Shown here: positions 49,270-61,237 of the stretch, one piece after another
Layout of the letters: every line of letters starts with the position of its first letter
How positions within the stretch are numbered: the stretch's first letter is position 1
Assembly: GCA_002269645.1 (NCBI GenBank)
Contig: NIVC01002688.1
Coordinates: 1-64,000 of the forward strand
Reading direction: 5' to 3'
Length of the DNA: 64,000 nucleotides
Source of the DNA: Macrostomum lignano
Lineage: Eukaryota
Program-made: the position numbers and the translations under genes
Notes under the pieces: model-generated
Told to the model about the DNA's origin: nothing
What the model saw: only the letters and a program-made list of their open reading frames with translations
Databases searched by the model: none

Positions 49270-50481
49270 TCAAGGCATCATCCGGAGGGCTCCGTCCAGC
49301 CGGATGCACTCCCCATTCAGCATGGGGTTAGTGACGATGGCTTCTACCAGGTGCGCGTACTCTGCAGGGTCGCCCAGCCGCTGTGGGAACGGCACGTTAG
49401 CCGCCAGCAGCTTGCGGGCCTTCTCTGGCAGCTTGGCCAGCAGGGGCGTGTCGAACAGGCCTGCAGAGTACGGGGTGCAGCGCCAGTCATCAACTAGCGA
49501 GGTATCCCAATCCTTGAATGAGTATCCCAAACCCCTGAATGAGTTTCCCAAATCCCTGAATGATTTTCCCAATCACCTGAATGAGCTTCCCAAATCCCAA
49601 TCCCTGAATGAGTATCCCAATCCCTGAATGACTATCCTAAATCCCTGAATGAGTTTCCCATCACCTGAATGAGTATCCCAAATCCCTGAATGAGTTTCCC
49701 AATCACCTGAATGAGTATCCCAAATGAGCATCCAGAACCCAGTCACTAACTACAATTCCAAAGCCACTGCAATCAGTTTCCTCACCCGGTGCAATGGTGA
49801 CCACCCGGATGCCGATGGGGCTGAGGTCGCGGGCCATGGGCAGCGTGAGGCCCACGATGGCGCCCTTGCTGGCTGAGTAGGCGACCTGGCCCACCTGGCC
49901 GTCGAAGGCTGCTACCGAGGCGGTGTTCACCAGCACGCCACGGCTGCCGTCTTCGTTCGGCTCATTCTTGGCCATGAGCTGCGCGGCCAGCCGGCACACA
50001 TTAAAAGTGCCACAGGCGTTCACCTCCAGCACCCTGGCGAACTCCTTCAACGGGTGCACGGCGTCCTTGTTCCAATTGTAGGTGCGCTGGGCGACGCCGA
50101 TGCCAGCGCAGTTGACGGCGACGTCCAGGCCGCCGAACTGCTTGGTGGCGGCGGCTAGTGCGGCGCCAACCTCCTTCTCGCAGGTGACGTCGGTCTTCTG
50201 GAAGACGGCGCCCTTCGGCAGGCTGTCCTCGCCGGCTAGGTCGCAAGCGATGACGCGGGCGCCGCCCTCCAGCATCCGTTTCACCGTGGCGCTGCCCAGG
50301 CCAGAGCCACCGCCCGTCACCAGCACGCGGAGACCCTGCAAAAATGATTGTCAAATTGTGCGTACAGAGCAAAGCCCAACAGACTACTAATGGTAGCAGG
50401 AAAAATATGTTAACATCTGGATTTGTCAAAGCAAATTGAAAACCATGCGCTCACCTTCACAGACTTGACAATATGAGCCAT
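49270..50481 (-). CDS. HSD17B10: 3-hydroxyacyl-CoA dehydrogenase type 2 (scully homolog), 255 aa, 3 exons
   Basis: MAHIVKSVK|[56 protein letters not shown]|[18 protein letters not shown]. Exons 50481-50455, 50335-49786, 49460-49270 total 768 nt. Confidence 0.97.
49505..49725. repeat. About 22-bp degenerate repeat (cccaaatccctgaatgagt) in HSD17B10 intron 2
   Basis: Visible periodicity. Confidence 0.85.
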
Positions 50482-52499: not shown

Positions 52500-54872
52500 A
52501 ATATTTTTCAACTTCTAATAAATATAAAATTTTGTTCGCATACATAAATTTATAGACTAATACAGCATCAAAATTTGCATCATGCTTCGTTTCATCCATA
52601 GTACACCTTTTTGGCACAGTTATTCTTGGAAAGGTGATGGTTCTCACACAATATCTGGGCTACTAATAAGGAAGTGTTGACTTTAGCGTTAGCTGCCCAC
52701 TTGCTCAATTCGGCCCTAAAATTGCATTTAAAATATAGGAAAGTTTATTACTGTCTAATTTTGTGCGCCTTTATTGACATTTAGGTTCCTAGTCATTTCG
52801 TCATCTGGGGGTGTCTGGGGTGCTTACCTCGACTAGGGACACCGTCATCTTAATTAGTATAGCATGCATTACCTGAAGAGAGTCATTTCGTCATCCACCA
52901 ATAATCATTTAATTAGTTCCAAGTGAATCATTGTGGCAATTAAACATTTACTTGGAATCCTAATGATCCCAGTCATTTTGTCATCTCGATTGATATAAAA
53001 CCTGTCAATCGATCGGTTCTGCTTGCCACAGCTTAGTTAATAAAAAACAAAATATAGTTTATTACACTAACTCGAATCTCACACAGGTTATTGGTTTGAT
53101 GACGAAGTATCCAGCATAACTAAATATTTGGTCACTTCATCATATTATTTTTCAAAGCTGCTTTGCTTCTGGGTCACTTCGTCATCCAATATGACGAAAT
53201 GGAATATAATGATCTGACTAGTGACCGACATTTAAATTACTAATAGTTTGTGTATTAAAATGAGGTGTGTGTAAATTTTCATTTAAATGCAAAATGTAAT
53301 ACATGCTGAGTATCTGCCTGCCGGCCTAGGATAGGACAAGGCTAGGCCAATTTAAAATTCTGAGTTAAACTAGGCATATAAGTATAATTACTTAAATCTT
53401 AAACAAATGTTAAAGAATGCGAATGGTTCTCCGGCTTAAATATTTTGCTACAAAACATGATATAGGCATTTTGTTTGCAATCTTTTGGTTTTGAATGACA
53501 ATCACCTTAAAATTGTTTTATATAAATAAAATTTGGAAGTTCTTAAAATGATAGAACAAACTGTTTCCAGAGATTTCAACTTTCATGGAATGATGAGCAA
53601 TGATCGTCATCCAAAAGATTGCCATTATGTTCGACATTATTAATAGGCCTAGTGGTACTAGTAATAGTGTGACATTTTACTACACTGTTTATAGCTATCT
53701 AGTTAGATCTAGGTAGGCCAGTAACTGGTAATTTTGCCCATAAACTGTTTTGGCCATGGACATTTCACCCCTAGACCATTTTGCCCACAAACCATTTTGG
53801 CCATGGACCATTTTTGCCATGGACTGTTTCGCCTCCAATTTGGACCAGGGTTGAAATGAACAGTCCTATACATAAAGAACATACCCATAACAGTCTAGGC
53901 AAAATGGTACTAGTGACAGAACTGAAAGTTTGAATCAATAATAAGTGCTAGGCTGAAGCATTCAAGGCTAGGCCCTATTAGTAGCATTCTTAAGAAAGAG
54001 ATAACAGGAGCCTAATTTCTTCTTACAATACAAAGGCAACTGAAATACCTAATCCTCAAATTTTAGAGTGCATTGGTCAAAGAGCAAAGCAAGTTGTGTA
54101 ACCTGAGGAACTAGCAAGAATAGATTTTGCAATCAACTACTCTACAGTACCTGAATCAGCTAAATATAAGCAACATAAATGAGGATGGCCACAGGCACAT
54201 TTTGATGTATTCTAATGATGGGATCTGGCACTTAGCTGCAGCAAAATACTGGTTTGTAGATGGTATGTTCTAGGTAATAAGAGAGCCATTTTACTAGCTA
54301 TTTATGTTTCATGCTTTCCTAAAGTACCAGGACAATATAAAGCAACTGCCACTTCTTTTTGTCCTTATGAGCTGCTGCCAAAAAAGTGACTACAAAGCTG
54401 TGTTTCACATATTATTGCAACTTCTGCCTGCCAAATCTTTAGTAAAGACAGTTATTTTAGATTTTGAGAAATCAGTGTGGAGCGCCTTCAAGTCCATTAT
54501 GCCAAGTGTCTACCTATGAGGCTACTCATTTCATTTCTGGCAAGCACTGATGGCTCATTCCATATAAGCATGGTCGTAACATGACAGGTTATTTTTACTT
54601 ATAAAATGAAATCTAATAATAGAATATACTGAACCAATATTTTAAATGAAAGATTATTTTGTCTAGAATATATTTATAGAGTTTCATATAGATATCATCA
54701 TTAGTATAGATGCTATTAAACCTTAAATGACACTTATGGTCGTAACGACAGGATTTTTGACATATAGAAACTAAAAGGTAAAAGTCTTATAACATTTTTC
54801 ATTTTTGATATTTTGCAATACATTTTTAAAATTTGACTAAGAACATCTTTAGAAATCATACTCTTTTATTAG

Positions 54873-55619
54873 TGTACTAGTGCTATGCCTTTATCATAGT
54901 ATACTCGAATGTTCTTTCAATGTAATAACTGTATATTCGAATCTTTCTTAGAAACTGAATCTACGCGAACGCCAAATAATAGTTTGTTTTAATGCGCGGC
55001 GAAATAAATTGGAGAATTATTTTTTTGTTTTAATCGTATGTGGGGAAAATCACTATATATAGGAGCGGTTTCGCGACAAATATACTCTAACTGTCTTTTA
55101 CTCGTGAGCAAATAATTGCGAACAGAATAAGCAGTTCAATCTAAACCATTTCAAAGTCTTTGAGCTAAATAGCGACTTATTTATTTGCAAAACCTGTGAA
55201 ACGATTCTAAGAAATTTACTAAGAGAAGGGAATTGGGACTAATTCTTGGAAATATACTAAGAGAGGCGCCGTGACCCTCTAGTCTCGGTGAACGCCCGAT
55301 TAGGACTATACACTAATACATATACCAGTACTAGACCGCTCAGGCCATAAGCTACTAGAACGCTACCAGAAAGCAAGCCATAAGCTACCAGAAACGCTAC
55401 TAAGAACGCTACCCAGAAATATTTAAATGAAATTCTAAGAAATAGTTAGGGAGTAAAAGCAAGTATAATCAGGATAACTGTAGTTGGCAAATCGGTGGGA
55501 TTAAAATTGATAAAGTAAGAGGTGAAAGGCCTGTAACAACTTTGGTGGCAGCTCGTAGGATATTTAATAAACACTAATAGTTAGAAGTTTAGAAAGACAG
55601 AGCCAAAAGGCCTGTCACA
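54873..55619 (+). repeat. 5' LTR (747 bp)
   Basis: tgtactagtg...cctgtcaca; direct repeat of 59151-59897. Confidence 0.95.
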
Positions 55620-55720
55620 GCTGGTGGCAGCGATAAGGATTAGAGAAACGGCGCGAACTCTTAAAGCTAGATTCAGAAGAATTCCGAAGAATAATTTGAA
55701 AAGTTTTTCGTAGAGAAAAG

Positions 55721-56299
55721 ATGAATCAGAATCAGGCTAATGATGCCATCGCCATGCTGGCAGAGGAACTGAGGAAACATCTCAAGTTAGGATCGAAGGA
55801 GGCTGAAGTGCAAGTAGAAAAGTTCACACCTGGTCAGAACATTAGGCAGTGGATGAACACGTTTGAGCAGCAGTGCAGAATCCAAGGGATTACAGGCGAG
55901 AAACAGAAGGAAGCTCTCTTTGCTAATCTAAACATCCCAGAGGGACTGAAACGCCGAATCAGTCACAGAAAAGAGCAGAGTCAGTATCAGGAAATTAGGC
56001 GACGAATAATCGAAGAATTTGAGCCGAAGCAGCAGAACCGAAAAGAGGGAATTGATGCATTAGTAGAGTGTCTAATGACCTTGACCTTCGTGCTAACAAA
56101 CATTAGCCTAGAACCAAAGACAGGGCAGCAGCAGCAGTCAGTGCCAAGACCGCGCCGCCTGAACAGATTCAGTGGAATCAGGCCAGAGCCGACACCTGGT
56201 CACTGCTTCTTCTGCAACCAGCCAGGACCCATTAGGCCTCAAGCAGGACACCAGTGCCGAATCAACTTCAATCGGTACGCCCAGCAGAAGCCGCCATAA
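55721..56299 (+). CDS. Short gag-like protein (capsid-like N part, degenerate zinc knuckle)
   Basis: Starts about 90 nt after the PBS; EKFTPGQNIRQWMNTFEQQC resembles the gypsy gag F.G...W...FE motif; CFFCNQPG..HQC knuckle remnant. Confidence 0.65.
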   Translation: MNQNQANDAIAMLAEELRKHLKLGSKEAEVQVEKFTPGQNIRQWMNTFEQQCRIQGITGEKQKEALFANLNIPEGLKRRISHRKEQSQYQEIRRRIIEEFEPKQQNRKEGIDALVECLMTLTFVLTNISLEPKTGQQQQSVPRPRRLNRFSGIRPEPTPGHCFFCNQPGPIRPQAGHQCRINFNRYAQQKPP

Positions 56300-56559
56300 T
56301 CAGAAAGTGAGCGAACTCAAGCGAATCAGCAAATTAAAAGTGTCTGTAAAGCAAATCTGTAAATATGTTTCAAATATATATGCATAAATATAAAAACGAA
56401 TAAAAAATTCAGAAAAACCCAAAAACATTTGATTAAGAGGTATTTTGTTGGCATGTTGCAAGGCAACTGATTAAATAAGCTGTCTAAAAGAAATAAAATA
56501 ATTAAATTTTAGGAAGGTGACCCTTAAAAGGGCCGTTTGACCTTAAAAGGGCCGTTTTA

Positions 56560-57588
56560 CTAAGAAACTTATTTAGGAAAGCCAGGGAACTGCAATTTCG
56601 GACTGAAAACATTGAAGGAAGATTATTTTACTCAGAGAAGTTGACGAGAAGTTGATGCTGAGAGAACTGTGCAGAATTGTGCGAAGAGAATTGTCGAAAA
56701 GATTGGATTGCAGAGATTGGCATGACGCGCGGACAGCTACGCATACTGACCAATTGCGGATTGGCCAAAGGCAGAAAGAAGAGGCCGATGACGCTTTCAG
56801 AAGAGCCAAAAAAGGTTCAGAGAGTCAGGCCATGCAGGAAAGGAAGGGCAGTAAGGCCTAAAGAGCAGATTAATACAGAATTTCTATGATTCTACTGACG
56901 AGGCCAAACTGAGATAGCGGAAGGGGATTCGAGATTTGGGAATTTGTTAAGAGTTGTAGGACCCGTGACAGTAGAGCTGTAGCTGGCATGAGTTCAGCAG
57001 AGAAGCTTTCGAGAGGTCAGGGTCGAGTCGAGATATTGAGTCGAGAAGTTGTTGAGTTGAGATGAGATGGAATGAAGATGAGATTTCGAGGAGAAGCTGT
57101 GAGAATTTGCAAAGTTGTTCGAAGAGAAACATAGAAATAATCTGACTCCAGTACCGAAATCCGAAATTAATTTACCAGAGGAAATTAATAATAATTTAAA
57201 ACCAGCACCAGTGTCAACTAAGAAGAAAGAACCGCCGAAGCCGAAGAAAAGAATTTGCCATAGACAAAAAGAAGTTAGAATTCCAGAAGTTCAAATTTTA
57301 GAGGAGGAAAGCTCAGACGAAGAAAACAGAATTCAATGGAGAGTATTCGCAGATCCGAATTCGCAGAGTGAAAACGAAGGAAATGAAGAATTGAACAGTG
57401 AGAATACAGAGAGAGCGACTGACTCAGATGAGCCATCAGAAGAAGAAGAAGGAGCATTAGAGTTAGAGGAGGAACGAGTTCAGCCAGAGAATAGGTATAA
57501 CTTTAGGATGACTCAGCGAAGGAGAGAAAGAGAAGGCGCGACAGGATTTGTGCCCCGAAGGCGCTACGCGAAATATTTAGCACCTTAA
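56560..57588 (+). pseudogene. Remnant of the pol C terminus (post-integrase tail)
   Basis: Broken frames with GQRQKEEAD, VVGPVTVEL-like and ENRYNFR..RRR motifs, typical of gypsy integrase tails; 157-aa acidic/basic ORF at 57115-57588. Confidence 0.4.
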
Positions 57589-57840
57589 ATCATGACGTAA
57601 GCAATTTCCCATAAGAAACAGTGTTAAATAGTTAAAATTCCGTATTAGAATTACTTATCTGCTTATAAAATTTAACATATTGTACATAGAGCGAATCTGT
57701 AAATACCATATTAATCTACAAAATGCGATCTTTAATTTGATACTTTACTCAAGAAAATCTATCAAAAAATAAAAAAGTTATAAAAAGAAATAGAAAATCC
57801 ATAAAAATTTAGTTGTCAAATCTGTCAAATCTGGCATGCC

Positions 57841-57905
57841 CCGCCCCACGCGCGAGGGGAGTGCTTCGAAGAGGTCCAGTTTTTCGGCCCGCCAGCCTAT
57901 AAATA
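57841..57905 (+). promoter_or_regulatory. Candidate internal promoter (GC box + TATA) for the cargo ORF
   Basis: ccgccccacgcgcg at 57841; TATAAATA at 57898-57905, about 85 nt upstream of the ATG at 57989. Confidence 0.5.
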
Positions 57906-57988
57906 CGAGCACCCCGCAGACCCCACAAATCCCATAGCTCACTGCTAGCTTCCTTTCTATTCTAAGAGCCATTCGCAGAGAAATCAAA

Positions 57989-58864
57989 ATGAACAACTCT
58001 ATTGATATCTTGGACGAGTTAATTGGCAATCTGTCAGACGATATGGAGCCCCAGCCAGCGCCCAACACCGATGAAAATGAGGCACCGCTTCGATGTGCAA
58101 CACGTCCAAAGGCGCCTGGTGTATCCAGCAAACGGCCAAGAACATCATCGCCAGCTTCATCGCCTTGCCGCCAAATGAGGGTCGAAGGCCCCGAGCAGAA
58201 GCGCGCCGCCCTGGTGGCAGCACAGGCAGCTGCGCCCGTGCGCTCCTATGTTGTCAAGGCCACGCCAGGATCGTCGACATCAAGCCGAACGCAGCAGTTG
58301 GTGTCACCGCCAGCTGCCCCATCATCGAGAAAGACCCCGGCACCACGGCAGAAGAAATCGACAGCTGCGACACCGCCAGCTCAGCAGCCAGCGTCGCAGC
58401 CGAGCCTGCAATCAGCGCAGCAGTCAGCGCTGCAGCCGAGCCTGCAATCAGCGCAGCAGTCTAGCCAGCCATCAGCACTACAGCCGAGCCAGCAGCAATC
58501 GAATTCGCAGAGAGATTTTCATCGCATCGTCCGAGAACTTGTGGAGACTCGCGGAGCAGAGGTGGAAAAGCTACGCTTCCACATTGAGCAATACGCACTG
58601 AAAGTAGCGTACCACCGATCCGACAGCCGACAGCGCTACCCCCAATGCTCGCAAATTTGGACACACCTGAAGTTTCTGAGGGATCAATTCAGTTACCAGG
58701 AAGCTGTCGCTGTTCTCCAGGACGTCGCCTATCGCCTCCAGCGAGCTATAAGAGCCAACCCGCCGCCAGCGCTGACGGTCCTCGACGAAGAGTACCGATG
58801 GTTTTTCGCTCAAGTCGGCTGGCCCTATTATCGCGACCTCCCGGAGCCCTGCATGTTTATCTGA
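57989..58864 (+). CDS. Orphan 291-aa ORF in the env position of the LTR element
   Basis: Intact ATG-to-TGA frame; acidic N terminus, S/P/Q/A-rich linker, about 115-aa aromatic-rich C-terminal domain; no signal peptide or TM segment visible. Confidence 0.7.
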   Translation: MNNSIDILDELIGNLSDDMEPQPAPNTDENEAPLRCATRPKAPGVSSKRPRTSSPASSPCRQMRVEGPEQKRAALVAAQAAAPVRSYVVKATPGSSTSSRTQQLVSPPAAPSSRKTPAPRQKKSTAATPPAQQPASQPSLQSAQQSALQPSLQSAQQSSQPSALQPSQQQSNSQRDFHRIVRELVETRGAEVEKLRFHIEQYALKVAYHRSDSRQRYPQCSQIWTHLKFLRDQFSYQEAVAVLQDVAYRLQRAIRANPPPALTVLDEEYRWFFAQVGWPYYRDLPEPCMFI

Positions 58865-59150
58865 ACTATTGAGGTGAACTAACTTTTGCGTTGCCTTTAA
58901 TAACAATTTTGCCTTTTATAATACTTTTATAATAGTTCGTTTTGCTTCCATAATAGTTCTCACTTTAATGGTTTACCTACATAATAGTTCTATCACAACC
59001 ATTTTATGCACCAATTGTTTTAGCACTGAATTGTGTTTTCTGCACCTTGCTTTGCACCTTTTCACCTGCATTTTCCTACGATATCAATTTTTCACTGTAT
59101 ACATATAATATAATATTTCGTTCAAAATTTGATATATAGAGGAGGAAAGT

Positions 59151-59897
59151 TGTACTAGTGCTATGCCTTTATCATAGTATACTCGAATGTTCTTTCAATG
59201 TAATAACTGTATATTCGAATCTTTCTTAGAAACTGAATCTACGCGAACGCCAAATAATAGTTTGTTTTAATGCGCGGCGAAATAAATTGGAGAATTATTT
59301 TTTTGTTTTAATCGTATGTGGGGAAAATCACTATATATAGGAGCGGTTTCGCGACAAATATACTCTAACTGTCTTTTACTCGTGAGCAAATAATTGCGAA
59401 CAGAATAAGCAGTTCAATCTAAACCATTTCAAAGTCTTTGAGCTAAATAGCGACTTATTTATTTGCAAAACCTGTGAAACGATTCTAAGAAATTTACTAA
59501 GAGAAGGGAATTGGGACTAATTCTTGGAAATATACTAAGAGAGGCGCCGTGACCCTCTAGTCTCGGTGAACGCCCGATTAGGACTATACACTAATACATA
59601 TACCAGTACTAGACCGCTCAGGCCATAAGCTACTAGAACGCTACCAGAAAGCAAGCCATAAGCTACCAGAAACGCTACTAAGAACGCTACCCAGAAATAT
59701 TTAAATGAAATTCTAAGAAATAGTTAGGGAGTAAAAGCAAGTATAATCAGGATAACTGTAGTTGGCAAATCGGTGGGATTAAAATTGATAAAGTAAGAGG
59801 TGAAAGGCCTGTAACAACTTTGGTGGCAGCTCGTAGGATATTTAATAAACACTAATAGTTAGAAGTTTAGAAAGACAGAGCCAAAAGGCCTGTCACA
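59151..59897 (+). repeat. 3' LTR (747 bp)
   Basis: Same sequence as the 5' LTR by visual comparison. Confidence 0.95.
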
Positions 59898-61237
59898 TTA
59901 GAATATATAAACTCAAAAGGCAACAAAGATACAAAAGAAAAGGCAGCCTTATGGTCGTAACATTATGGTCGTGACATATTTTTTTCTGTCAATTCAGTAA
60001 CTTTGAGGTACTAATACATTAAAAATATAATAGATTATTTGGTCACCAATGCTTTTATCTTATGATGCAAGTACTATACTTTTATCTATAGTTTGTTTCA
60101 ACCTTCAAAAGCTTTCTATTTGTTTTTAAAAGGTACAAAATCTTAATGATGTATTTTGCTTCAAAAAATGTCCAAATTTTTACAAAAATGACTTTTTGCC
60201 AATTGATAACATACTTATCCAACATTTTACCATTCCTTTATTCTTAGATTGTATATATTGCACAATATAAACATTTGGTAAAAAAATAGGCTAATTAGGC
60301 AATGGCAAGCAAAAATATTGACTTTTTTCTATTTTCCAAATATGTCTATCTTATATGGAATGAGCCTGATGAGAAAAATTCAGGAAGTGGACTTTCAGCG
60401 CAACTTATCAAAAGAACTGTTGTAAAAGAATTTTGTCGCAATGTTATGTCACTTTCTTGCCTACTGCATCATGCCATTCTGATGGCCTTTTCTAATCTGC
60501 TATGTAGAGCTGCTACTAGCCAAGGACTGCAGCATTGGATGTCCTACATCCAGGAAACATGGATTAGGAGTTCAATGTGGCCACCAAAATCATGGTCATC
60601 TTACTGGCAGCTGTATAGGACAAACAACAATGCTGAAAGTTGGCACAACCATCTGAACTAAAAGGCCACTTGTGGTTCTCTTCAGTTTTATTGCCTCCTG
60701 CTATTGATAGTTTTACATATTAAAACTAAAAATTAGCATTAAAAAATAAAATAAAGATACTTGTATGGCTGTATCTCTAGTTAATACATAATAGTACTAG
60801 TACATTAATACCCATGCCCAAATTGGAGGCGAAATGGTCCATGGCTGAACTGGTTTATGGGCGAAATGGACTATGGGCAAAATGTCCATGGCTGAAATGG
60901 TTTGGGGGCAAAACAACTGGAATTCAGGTAGGCCTATAGGCCCAAAACTTAAAGTTTGCTGTAGACATAAAATTTAAATAAGTATACCCTAGGACCTAAA
61001 CCTAATATAACTCTAAGTGGTTTGGTTTGCAGTTGGCTAAAAGTCATGCTAGACCTAATTTTGCCAGATAGCTAGTTAGCTTTATATAAAATGCCTATAT
61101 GAATATAGGAAACTAATCATTTTGCCCTCAAACTATAGACATTTCCCTTAGACCATTTTGTCTATATGACATATACCCAAGTAAGATATTTTGCTAGTGC
61201 TAAAATGTAAATTTTATCCAAGGACAAGGTGCAAGGT

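Follow-up and report, generated by a model that had tools for sequence, protein, structure and literature searches.

Introduction

To our knowledge, accessory open reading frames are common in LTR retrotransposons and almost none of them has a known job. It is likewise an open question how such elements time themselves to be expressed in heritable cells. In plants, the VANC proteins of VANDAL DNA transposons are anti-silencing proteins that act in trans and diversify between subfamilies. Closer to the gene described here, the Tas protein of foamy viruses is reported to have an internal promoter and an acidic activation domain (PMC3798896), and bdelloid rotifers are described as harbouring non-env ORF3s together with TelKA2n, a non-autonomous element that keeps its ORF3 (PMC5408684). 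On the host side, CRAMP1 is presented as a transcription factor specific for linker histone H1 genes in human cells (PMC12240685), and Cramp1-driven H1 is reported to silence transposons in fly and mouse (bioRxiv 10.1101/2025.02.07.636160). The LTR families of the flatworm Macrostomum lignano have been classified by reverse transcriptase (RT), and the main text of that study contains neither the term "ORF" nor "non-autonomous" (PMC12801592). Here, we follow up a first-pass annotation of an uninterrupted frame, hereafter ORF3, in an LTR element of this species. The window, by which we mean the whole stretch analysed, comprises 64,000 nucleotides of contig NIVC01002688.1 (assembly GCA_002269645.1).

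Results

Structure of the element in the window

The element spans 54873-59897 (5,025 bp), with a primer-binding site (PBS), a polypurine tract (PPT) and two LTRs (Table 1). The hallmarks of Ty3/gypsy elements are present, namely TG...CA LTRs, a target duplication, a tRNA primer site and a PPT, and other young members of the family are likewise flanked by 4-bp duplications. The first-pass annotation had described a pol-less element with seemingly identical LTRs and an intact 291-aa frame preceded by a GC box and a TATA box, and each of these features was recovered: the LTRs agree at every one of their 747 bp, and pol is reduced to its last ~152 codons, with no RT, RNaseH or integrase found between the two LTRs. 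Two further features, an intact short gag and an element of host H1 promoters, are added here. The 5' LTR has a TATA-like box ~180 nt in, and its U3 contains a TTGTTT(A/T)A and a TTCN3GAA site, which we take to be Fox-like and STAT/BCL6-like, respectively.

Table 1. Coordinates of the element and its features in the window
Feature	Position	Strand	Remark
Target-site duplication TTAG, 4 bp	54869-54872; right copy 59898-59901	+	sequence comparison
5' LTR, 747 bp, TG...CA	54873-55619	+	100% identical to 3' LTR
Primer-binding site, complementary to tRNA-Leu(AAG) 3' end	55622-55640	+	11 nt perfect in window copy
Short Gag of the pol-less lineage, 192 aa	55721-56299	+	intact
Non-coding interior	56300-57128	+	only in pol-less lineage, in place of ~5 kb gag-pol
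pol 3' end remnant, acidic tail after integrase	57129-57588	+	without own start codon; common to autonomous copies
GC box GCCCCGCCCC upstream of ORF3	57838-57847	+	sequence
Histone H1 promoter element, 21 nt	57863-57883	+	sequence match; identical to host stem-loop-type H1 promoter
TATA box TATAAATA of predicted internal ORF3 promoter	57898-57905	+	sequence
ORF3, uninterrupted 291-aa frame	57989-58864	+	
Polypurine tract AGAGGAGGAAAG	59138-59149	+	
3' LTR, 747 bp	59151-59897	+	identical to 5' LTR

The 3' end of the LTR (55527-55640) holds a ~80-bp unit that ends in an older look-alike of the LTR end and primer site; the number of these units differs among copies, whose LTRs measure 747-833 bp. 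The LTR element sits inside a degenerate one whose inverted ends measure ~82 nt (53726-53861 and 60791-60913), and the same region contains the remnant of a MULE transposase (54298-54516; Pfam E 7.9e-5, below the cut-off). On the minus strand, a host gene in two pieces (49270-50350) looks like a short-chain dehydrogenase, presumably HSD17B10-like.

The ORF3 protein

From its N terminus, ORF3 consists of an acidic amphipathic helix (residues 6-12), an EAPLRxPTRP motif, a KR pair at 48-49, a KRAAL helix (69-80), a low-complexity linker and a C-terminal domain (170-291). The layout common to its homologues comprises the acidic N-terminal helix, a basic middle motif, variable P/Q/A repeats and the C-terminal domain. 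The first 30 residues carry a net charge of -7 to -11 in 25 of 25 proteins, and K48-R49 is invariant in 22 of 22 homologues. The C-terminal domain has invariant arginines (R210) and is mildly basic (+1 to +7). AlphaFold models this domain as a five-helix bundle (pLDDT 89.6, pTM 0.84) and residues 1-169 as mostly disordered; thus, the disordered N half and compact C-terminal domain of the first-pass annotation agree with the model, save for two short helices at 6-12 and 69-80. A homodimer prediction of the domain, made from sequence without an alignment, scored 0.01.

Over 17 subfamilies, the C-terminal domain evolves with an omega of ~0.11. Among 32 close copies it shows 14 synonymous and 4 replacement variants (81 and 276 sites), compared with 14 and 31 in the pol tail (93 and 363 sites). 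ORF3 is a real gene under purifying selection. The frame itself is unbroken in 15 of the 32 close copies and broken in 17; six of these copies share one C-run frameshift, which lies on different haplotypes and may be an assembly error. Among the checks that had been proposed earlier, the comparison of substitutions across copies gave 4 replacements against 31 in the pol tail, and the one on integrity gave 17 broken frames in 32 copies.

Pfam gave nothing near its cut-off for ORF3 and 24 C-terminal domains. A word-indexed search of residues 170-291 against 5.8 billion proteins, limited to lengths of 160-510, yielded no homologue among 43 candidates, PDB sequences gave a single match (E 0.34), and the ESM Atlas gave no usable match. 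A profile search against 1.84 billion representatives returned 10 matches: of the six that were examined, five are named records of Macrostomum lignano and the sixth is an unnamed cluster, while the four weakest look like repeat proteins. At the level of structure, Foldseek found nothing at E 0.001 in PDB and viral structures, and the best VIA-align hit (Z 7.6, rmsd 2.5, 82 aligned residues) lies within the range of common helical bundles. ORF3 is thus an uncharacterised protein family with a confidently predicted fold that has no known match in the searches made. In the literature searched, neither this family nor a transposon with an H1-type promoter is described, though supplements or further papers may do so.

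We also considered whether ORF3 could be an env gene. This is disfavoured: no transmembrane segment or hydrophobic signal peptide was found in any of 22 homologues (19-residue Kyte-Doolittle maximum at most 1.11 in 22/22) and no viral homologue was found, in line with the earlier statement that the protein is not env-like. Likewise, none of the homology and fold searches, Foldseek and profiles included, found a match to env or to a host gene.

Autonomous helpers and occurrence of ORF3 in the clade

A DNA search with the element gave 40 genomic matches, 34 of them close: 16 pol-less copies of 5 kb, 16 full-length copies of 8.7 kb, one chimera of the two types (L036) and one copy cut by a contig end. 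The 8.7-kb helpers encode a 341-aa Gag (CCHC), an overlapping pol frame of 1,516 aa and then ORF3 as in the window. In the helper L031, Pfam places the pol domains in the order PR-RT-RNaseH-IN and finds zf-CCHC in Gag; a weak Retrotrans_gag match was obtained for L127. Of the 15 close long copies translated (the chimera excluded), pol is unbroken in 5. Since 16 of the 34 close copies are full-length and carry the same ORF3, ORF3 is a gene of an autonomous Ty3/gypsy family. The earlier suggestion that the window's element was moved in trans is supported by these 16 full-length partners. A place in the Gmr1/Osvaldo clade, as that name is used for this species (PMC12801592), is a possibility in so far as the layout of pol, judged by eye, resembles that of the published family id38.

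The L031 pol has long acidic tracts at residues ~880-930, between RNaseH and integrase, and in the C-terminal tail after integrase. This tail diverges fast between subfamilies.

The C-terminal domain of ORF3 has at least 150 genomic matches, at 100 to 27% identity; this is a lower bound, as all 150 candidates scored were matches. The family spans the whole clade, with domains 100 to 22% identical. Of 40 diverged matches sampled, 30 lie behind gag/pol of the same clade, 3 are ambiguous and 7 have neither; LTR pairs were found in 25 of the 40, and 23 of these pairs are at least 97.6% identical. In all full-length members of the clade that were examined, ORF3 is placed between pol and the PPT. 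Selecting by Gag alone gave five full-length elements free of interruptions, all of which have ORF3 (two more that were selected are interrupted and lie outside this count). One named Macrostomum lignano protein (P0002) is letter-identical to the ORF3 of locus L076. Another homologue with the full architecture (P0012), from another source, has its best matches in this genome at only 39-48% identity, which means that the family extends beyond this assembly.

In six ORF3-derived loci (L074, L075, L086, L089, L097 and L121), the stretch examined shows neither gag nor pol nor a pair of LTRs, and some of their frames are open over more than 200 codons.

The ORF3 promoter and the host histone H1 element

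The TATA box noted earlier as ORF3's own promoter is conserved as sequence across subfamilies: 13 of 19 subfamily promoters have TATAWAW at a distance of 72-111 nt upstream of the start codon. Just upstream of it sits a conserved motif with 445 exact matches in the genome (control, 0). The first 100 matches listed are mostly tandem arrays, and 2 of 14 places examined sit before a histone H1 gene. Conversely, the motif occurs with at most one mismatch in 9 of 15 H1 copies (three paralogs) and in 0 of 30 H3 loci, and the core of the element in 12 of 15 H1 copies (four of five paralogs) and, again, in 0 of 30 H3 loci; H3 loci make up the whole core-histone comparison. Eleven other ORF3 subfamilies agree with this H1 version to within 0-3 mismatches over 27 positions, and in L071 the agreement is exact. 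The window subfamily differs from that version and matches, at 21 of 21 nt, a fourth H1 paralog (copies L158-160), which has a 3' histone stem-loop. A 20-mer of it has 46 matches genome-wide, corresponding to 38 ORF3 promoters, 4 H1 promoter copies and 4 ends of tandem arrays (control, 0). One variant of the flatworm element begins with an AACACA core, which we assume to be like that of the H1 box.

On sequence grounds, then, the DNA upstream of ORF3 matches a presumptive control element of the host linker-histone genes. Because this region combines the H1 element with a TATA box, we infer that ORF3 would be driven by the host factor of the H1 genes, with no need of the LTR. The H1 element is missing from six of the 20 promoters compared, all from the deep branch, which have CCAAT and TATA or other layouts, so H1 timing would not be universal in the clade.

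The motif has no Rfam family in 10 loci and is not repeated in the LTRs. An snRNA promoter element (PSE) was considered and rejected: eight U2/U6 loci share another motif and none has the promoter motif within 5 mismatches. The upstream motif shared by these U2/U6 genes (L144-L151), CTACGAAAAC, is likely the snRNA promoter element of this genome. The H1 element also forms the core of many unrelated tandem arrays (L131-L133, L136-L142, L197-L199 and L201) with periods of ~29-75 nt, possibly multimerised binding sites or decoys.

As for transcripts, no sequencing run holding ORF3 sequence is recorded as RNA. In contigs of four runs whose RNA status is a guess, ORF3 is continuous with the pol tail and LTR, and no joint from splicing is seen. 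One run has a step in depth near 57940, at the place of a haplotype branch; a transcription start cannot be read from contigs. Among named homologues, four gene ids were looked for in article full text and text supplements and are absent from both; larger expression tables possibly lie outside these.

A pol-less satellite lineage that captures ORF3

The short Gag (~190 aa) has an N-terminal part homologous to helper Gag and lacks the central capsid part. Its finger, C-X2-C-X11-H-X-C, is present too in deep-branch helpers. In a tree with 13 helper Gags, the nine short Gags fall together as a single clade (support 100/100), and they evolve with an omega of 0.17. The pol-less elements have the traits of the Quinta/Sabrina type, that is, no RT/IN, a conserved Gag lineage of their own, and LTR, PBS and PPT shared with helpers. 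By these comparisons, they are an old satellite lineage and not fresh deletions. The first ~18 codons of the short Gag follow whichever helper is current, and the protein might change helper particles or act as their parasite.

In contrast to the short Gags, the ORF3s of pol-less elements do not form one clade (p-AU 1.7e-39), and identical or near-identical helper/satellite pairs were found four times (the window element with L031, L065 with L063, L071 with L072, and L102 with L077). Trees and pairs together show, as far as sequences can, that the pol-less lineage repeatedly captures ORF3 and LTR from helpers. The idea that ORF3 is an accessory factor of a non-autonomous family is not supported; it is a clade-wide gene of autonomous elements.

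The first-pass annotation had also read the intact frame as retained by selection. This holds for the gene (omega ~0.11), whereas its intactness in this pol-less copy is no proof. Among close pol-less copies, the short Gag is intact in 13 of 14 and ORF3 in 8 of 14, and the pol tail, which has no function there, is open in 13 of 14. At two loci, L112 and L113, repeats have replaced ORF3 in pol-less copies, and the LTRs of L112 are 100% identical. Since such ORF3-less copies spread, ORF3 is not needed in cis, and the notion of selection within the pol-less element is not supported; the intact frame in the window therefore points to recent capture. There, ORF3 is likely a passenger taken from a full-length helper.

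Cassette swapping and a stand-alone domain gene

In L031, L063 and L067, the dS of the pol enzyme domains is 0.02-0.16, whereas that of the ORF3 domain is saturated, with amino-acid identities of 81, 64 and 62%. ORF3 thus swaps as a cassette on near-identical pol. Sliding windows place the switch point in the pol tail, and ORF3 and LTR usually change together, which linkage alone can explain. A strict pairing of ORF3 with U3 was not found among the element pairs compared: U3 is less than 80% identical in 7 of 26 pairs with ORF3 domains at least 90% identical, and it is shared in only 2 of 602 pairs with diverged domains, both involving L063. Conserved U3 motifs are common to all subfamilies. 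TTGTTT(A/T)A occurs in 21 of 21 LTR-type U3s (41 sites, 1.5 in shuffles) and TTCN3GAA in 11 of 21 (12 sites, 1.1 in shuffles).

Moreover, a stand-alone gene of 118-119 aa consists of the ORF3 C-terminal domain only (L096:8253-8609, L110:6821-7177 and L111:6539-6898, on contigs C846, C3012 and C2203 of the assembly, G000). It has no LTR, no pol nearby, no acidic helix and no basic motif, and it keeps an ORF3/H1-type promoter. The gene is open in three copies of one locus, the flanks of which are 0-4% apart, and two copies compared differ by 4 synonymous and 1 replacement change; its named record is a hypothetical protein. We regard it as a candidate domesticated inhibitor.

Discussion

Our preferred reading, which we hold tentatively, is that ORF3 may be a nuclear, trans-acting activator of the LTR, comparable to foamy-virus Tas and timed by the H1 circuit. 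The combination of a predicted LTR-independent promoter, a putative import signal, an acidic helix and a folded domain makes it the best fit. Stem-loop H1 genes are of the replication type, and together with the identity of the dividing cells in flatworms this would place ORF3 production in the heritable compartment. These dividing cells are described as stem and germ cells (PMC9740662), and the stem-loop H1 promoter copied by the window subfamily would then mean expression in their S phase. The KR motifs would import the protein into the nucleus, its folded C-terminal domain would bind to DNA or chromatin of the element, co-activators would be recruited through the acidic helix, and in dividing cells ORF3 would thereby turn on the LTR. 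The pol-less lineage recombines with helpers and takes over a 3' block of pol tail, promoter, ORF3 and LTR; the satellite would need the LTR match, and ORF3 would come by linkage and act in trans. Against an activator, the charge of the C-terminal domain is no more than mildly basic, and the fold searches returned no known DNA-binding fold. That U3 changes under near-identical ORF3, and that U3 motifs are shared, fits host factors driving the LTR equally well. We also take the acidic helix to fit the pattern of a nuclear-export signal equally well.

Next to the activator we place an anti-silencing role, because Cramp1-driven H1 silences transposons, as reported for fly and mouse (bioRxiv 10.1101/2025.02.07.636160). 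ORF3, made whenever H1 is made, would remove or block an H1-based or other host repressor on the copies, which we consider possible though on the unlikely side. Its promoter copies an H1-specific element, and such specificity is what is described for human CRAMP1 (PMC12240685); old ORF3 cassettes swap on near-identical pol as expected in a conflict, and a host locus keeps a domain-only version. However, the shared promoter explains the timing without any interaction with H1, the omega of 0.11 leaves no excess of replacements, and no long acidic tract or known histone-binding fold was found in ORF3.

It is also possible, if rather unlikely, that the pol-less lineage keeps ORF3 by selection, either to supply its helpers or out of a need in cis, as one half of a cooperative pair. 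An ORF3 domain indeed lies at most 7 kb downstream in 39 of 48 short-Gag loci (set against 97 of the 150 domain matches), and pairs known only as pol-less elements show few replacements (L073/L103, pN 0.015 and pS 0.072; L099/L100, 0.011 and 0.057). Linkage to the LTR explains this retention as well, the helpers of these pairs may be unsampled, ORF3-less copies spread, and ORF3 is intact less often (8/14) than short Gag or the functionless pol tail (13/14 each).

An adaptor for RNA export, or a nuclear-import factor, ranks after anti-silencing, and we think it improbable. The N-terminal helix would then serve export and the KR pair import, while the domain, with its invariant arginines (R210), would bind either the genomic RNA or the integration complex. 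The helix has hydrophobic residues so spaced that they presumably suit an export signal. Among LTR retrotransposons, CERV of Cer1 offers a precedent (PMC10309623), but factors of the CERV/Rev type come from spliced LTR transcripts, whereas ORF3 has its own conserved promoter sequence, lacks the H, M and G domains of CERV and is modelled as all-helical, with no Cys loop.

A broader scheme, unlikely as a whole, would combine several of these elements: an accessory gene wired into the H1 circuit by copying two H1 paralog promoters would encode a counter-silencing protein made along with H1, its cassettes would swap, a Gag-encoding satellite would hijack it, and the host would use the domain-only gene as a dominant-negative brake. 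An origin of ORF3 as the remnant of env, as a fragment captured from a host gene or as a frame open by chance is hardly credible, its env position and the roughly half of close copies that are broken notwithstanding, given an omega of 0.11, a motif architecture conserved down to 22% identity, no transmembrane segment or signal peptide, and no host or viral homologue found.

Besides the element of the flatworm's H1 promoters, the analysis establishes a helper/satellite pair in an animal in which a gene is captured. Transgenesis and RNAi are described for the species (PMC5730564, PMC11075559), for which RAMPAGE libraries are also available (PMC5730564), and with an exact copy of the H1 element at hand, promoter mimicry, trans action and the possible host inhibitor are directly testable.

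Comparison with known systems

Extra ORFs with their own promoter, non-env ORF3s and Gag-encoding satellites are already known; the H1-type promoter is the surprising feature. Compared with VANC, ORF3 lies in an LTR element and no homology was found, and an anti-silencing function is putative.

Foamy-virus Tas/Bel-1, as described, is also a small ORF before the 3' LTR with its own TATA promoter (a predicted one in the case of ORF3) and an acidic motif, is similar in size (209-308 aa) and is likewise little conserved between lineages (PMC3798896). ORF3, by contrast, belongs to a Ty3/gypsy element with a gypsy-type pol and no env, its acidic helix is N-terminal, its promoter element is that of host H1, no sequence or fold match to Tas was found, and activation is putative. 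Gene23 of maize Grande and other additional ORFs of plants occupy the pol-LTR interval and are reported with their own promoter and a nuclear protein of open function (PMC7264820); they are described as antisense and plant-specific, whereas ORF3 is sense, animal and unrelated by Pfam. The rotifer ORF3s are env-like, GDSL or DEDDy enzymes and are described as spliced (PMC5408684), and the flatworm ORF3 fits none of these classes. CERV of C. elegans Cer1 is also a novel accessory protein with candidate NLS and NES, and is nuclear; it is described as spliced from the 5' end of gag, with 517 aa and H, M (Cys loop) and G (Rossmann-like) domains (PMC10309623). ORF3 is a separate frame located 3' of pol, has a predicted promoter of its own and an all-helical domain, and does not share these CERV traits.

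For the satellite, the wheat pairs RLG_Quinta/RLG_Cereba, Sabrina/WHAM/Wilma and Angela are the closest parallel, likewise described as old non-autonomous lineages with their own Gag that share LTR, PBS and PPT with an autonomous partner and switch partners by LTR transfer (PMC11302176, PMC9744471). In the flatworm, the host is an animal, the Gag of the satellite is a truncated one that has an unusual finger, and the captured block includes an accessory gene. Finally, the H1 box/CH1UE, described as read via CRAMP1 in human cells, is likewise an H1-specific upstream element absent from H3 genes (PMC12240685); the flatworm element differs in that it sits also in the promoter of a retrotransposon gene.
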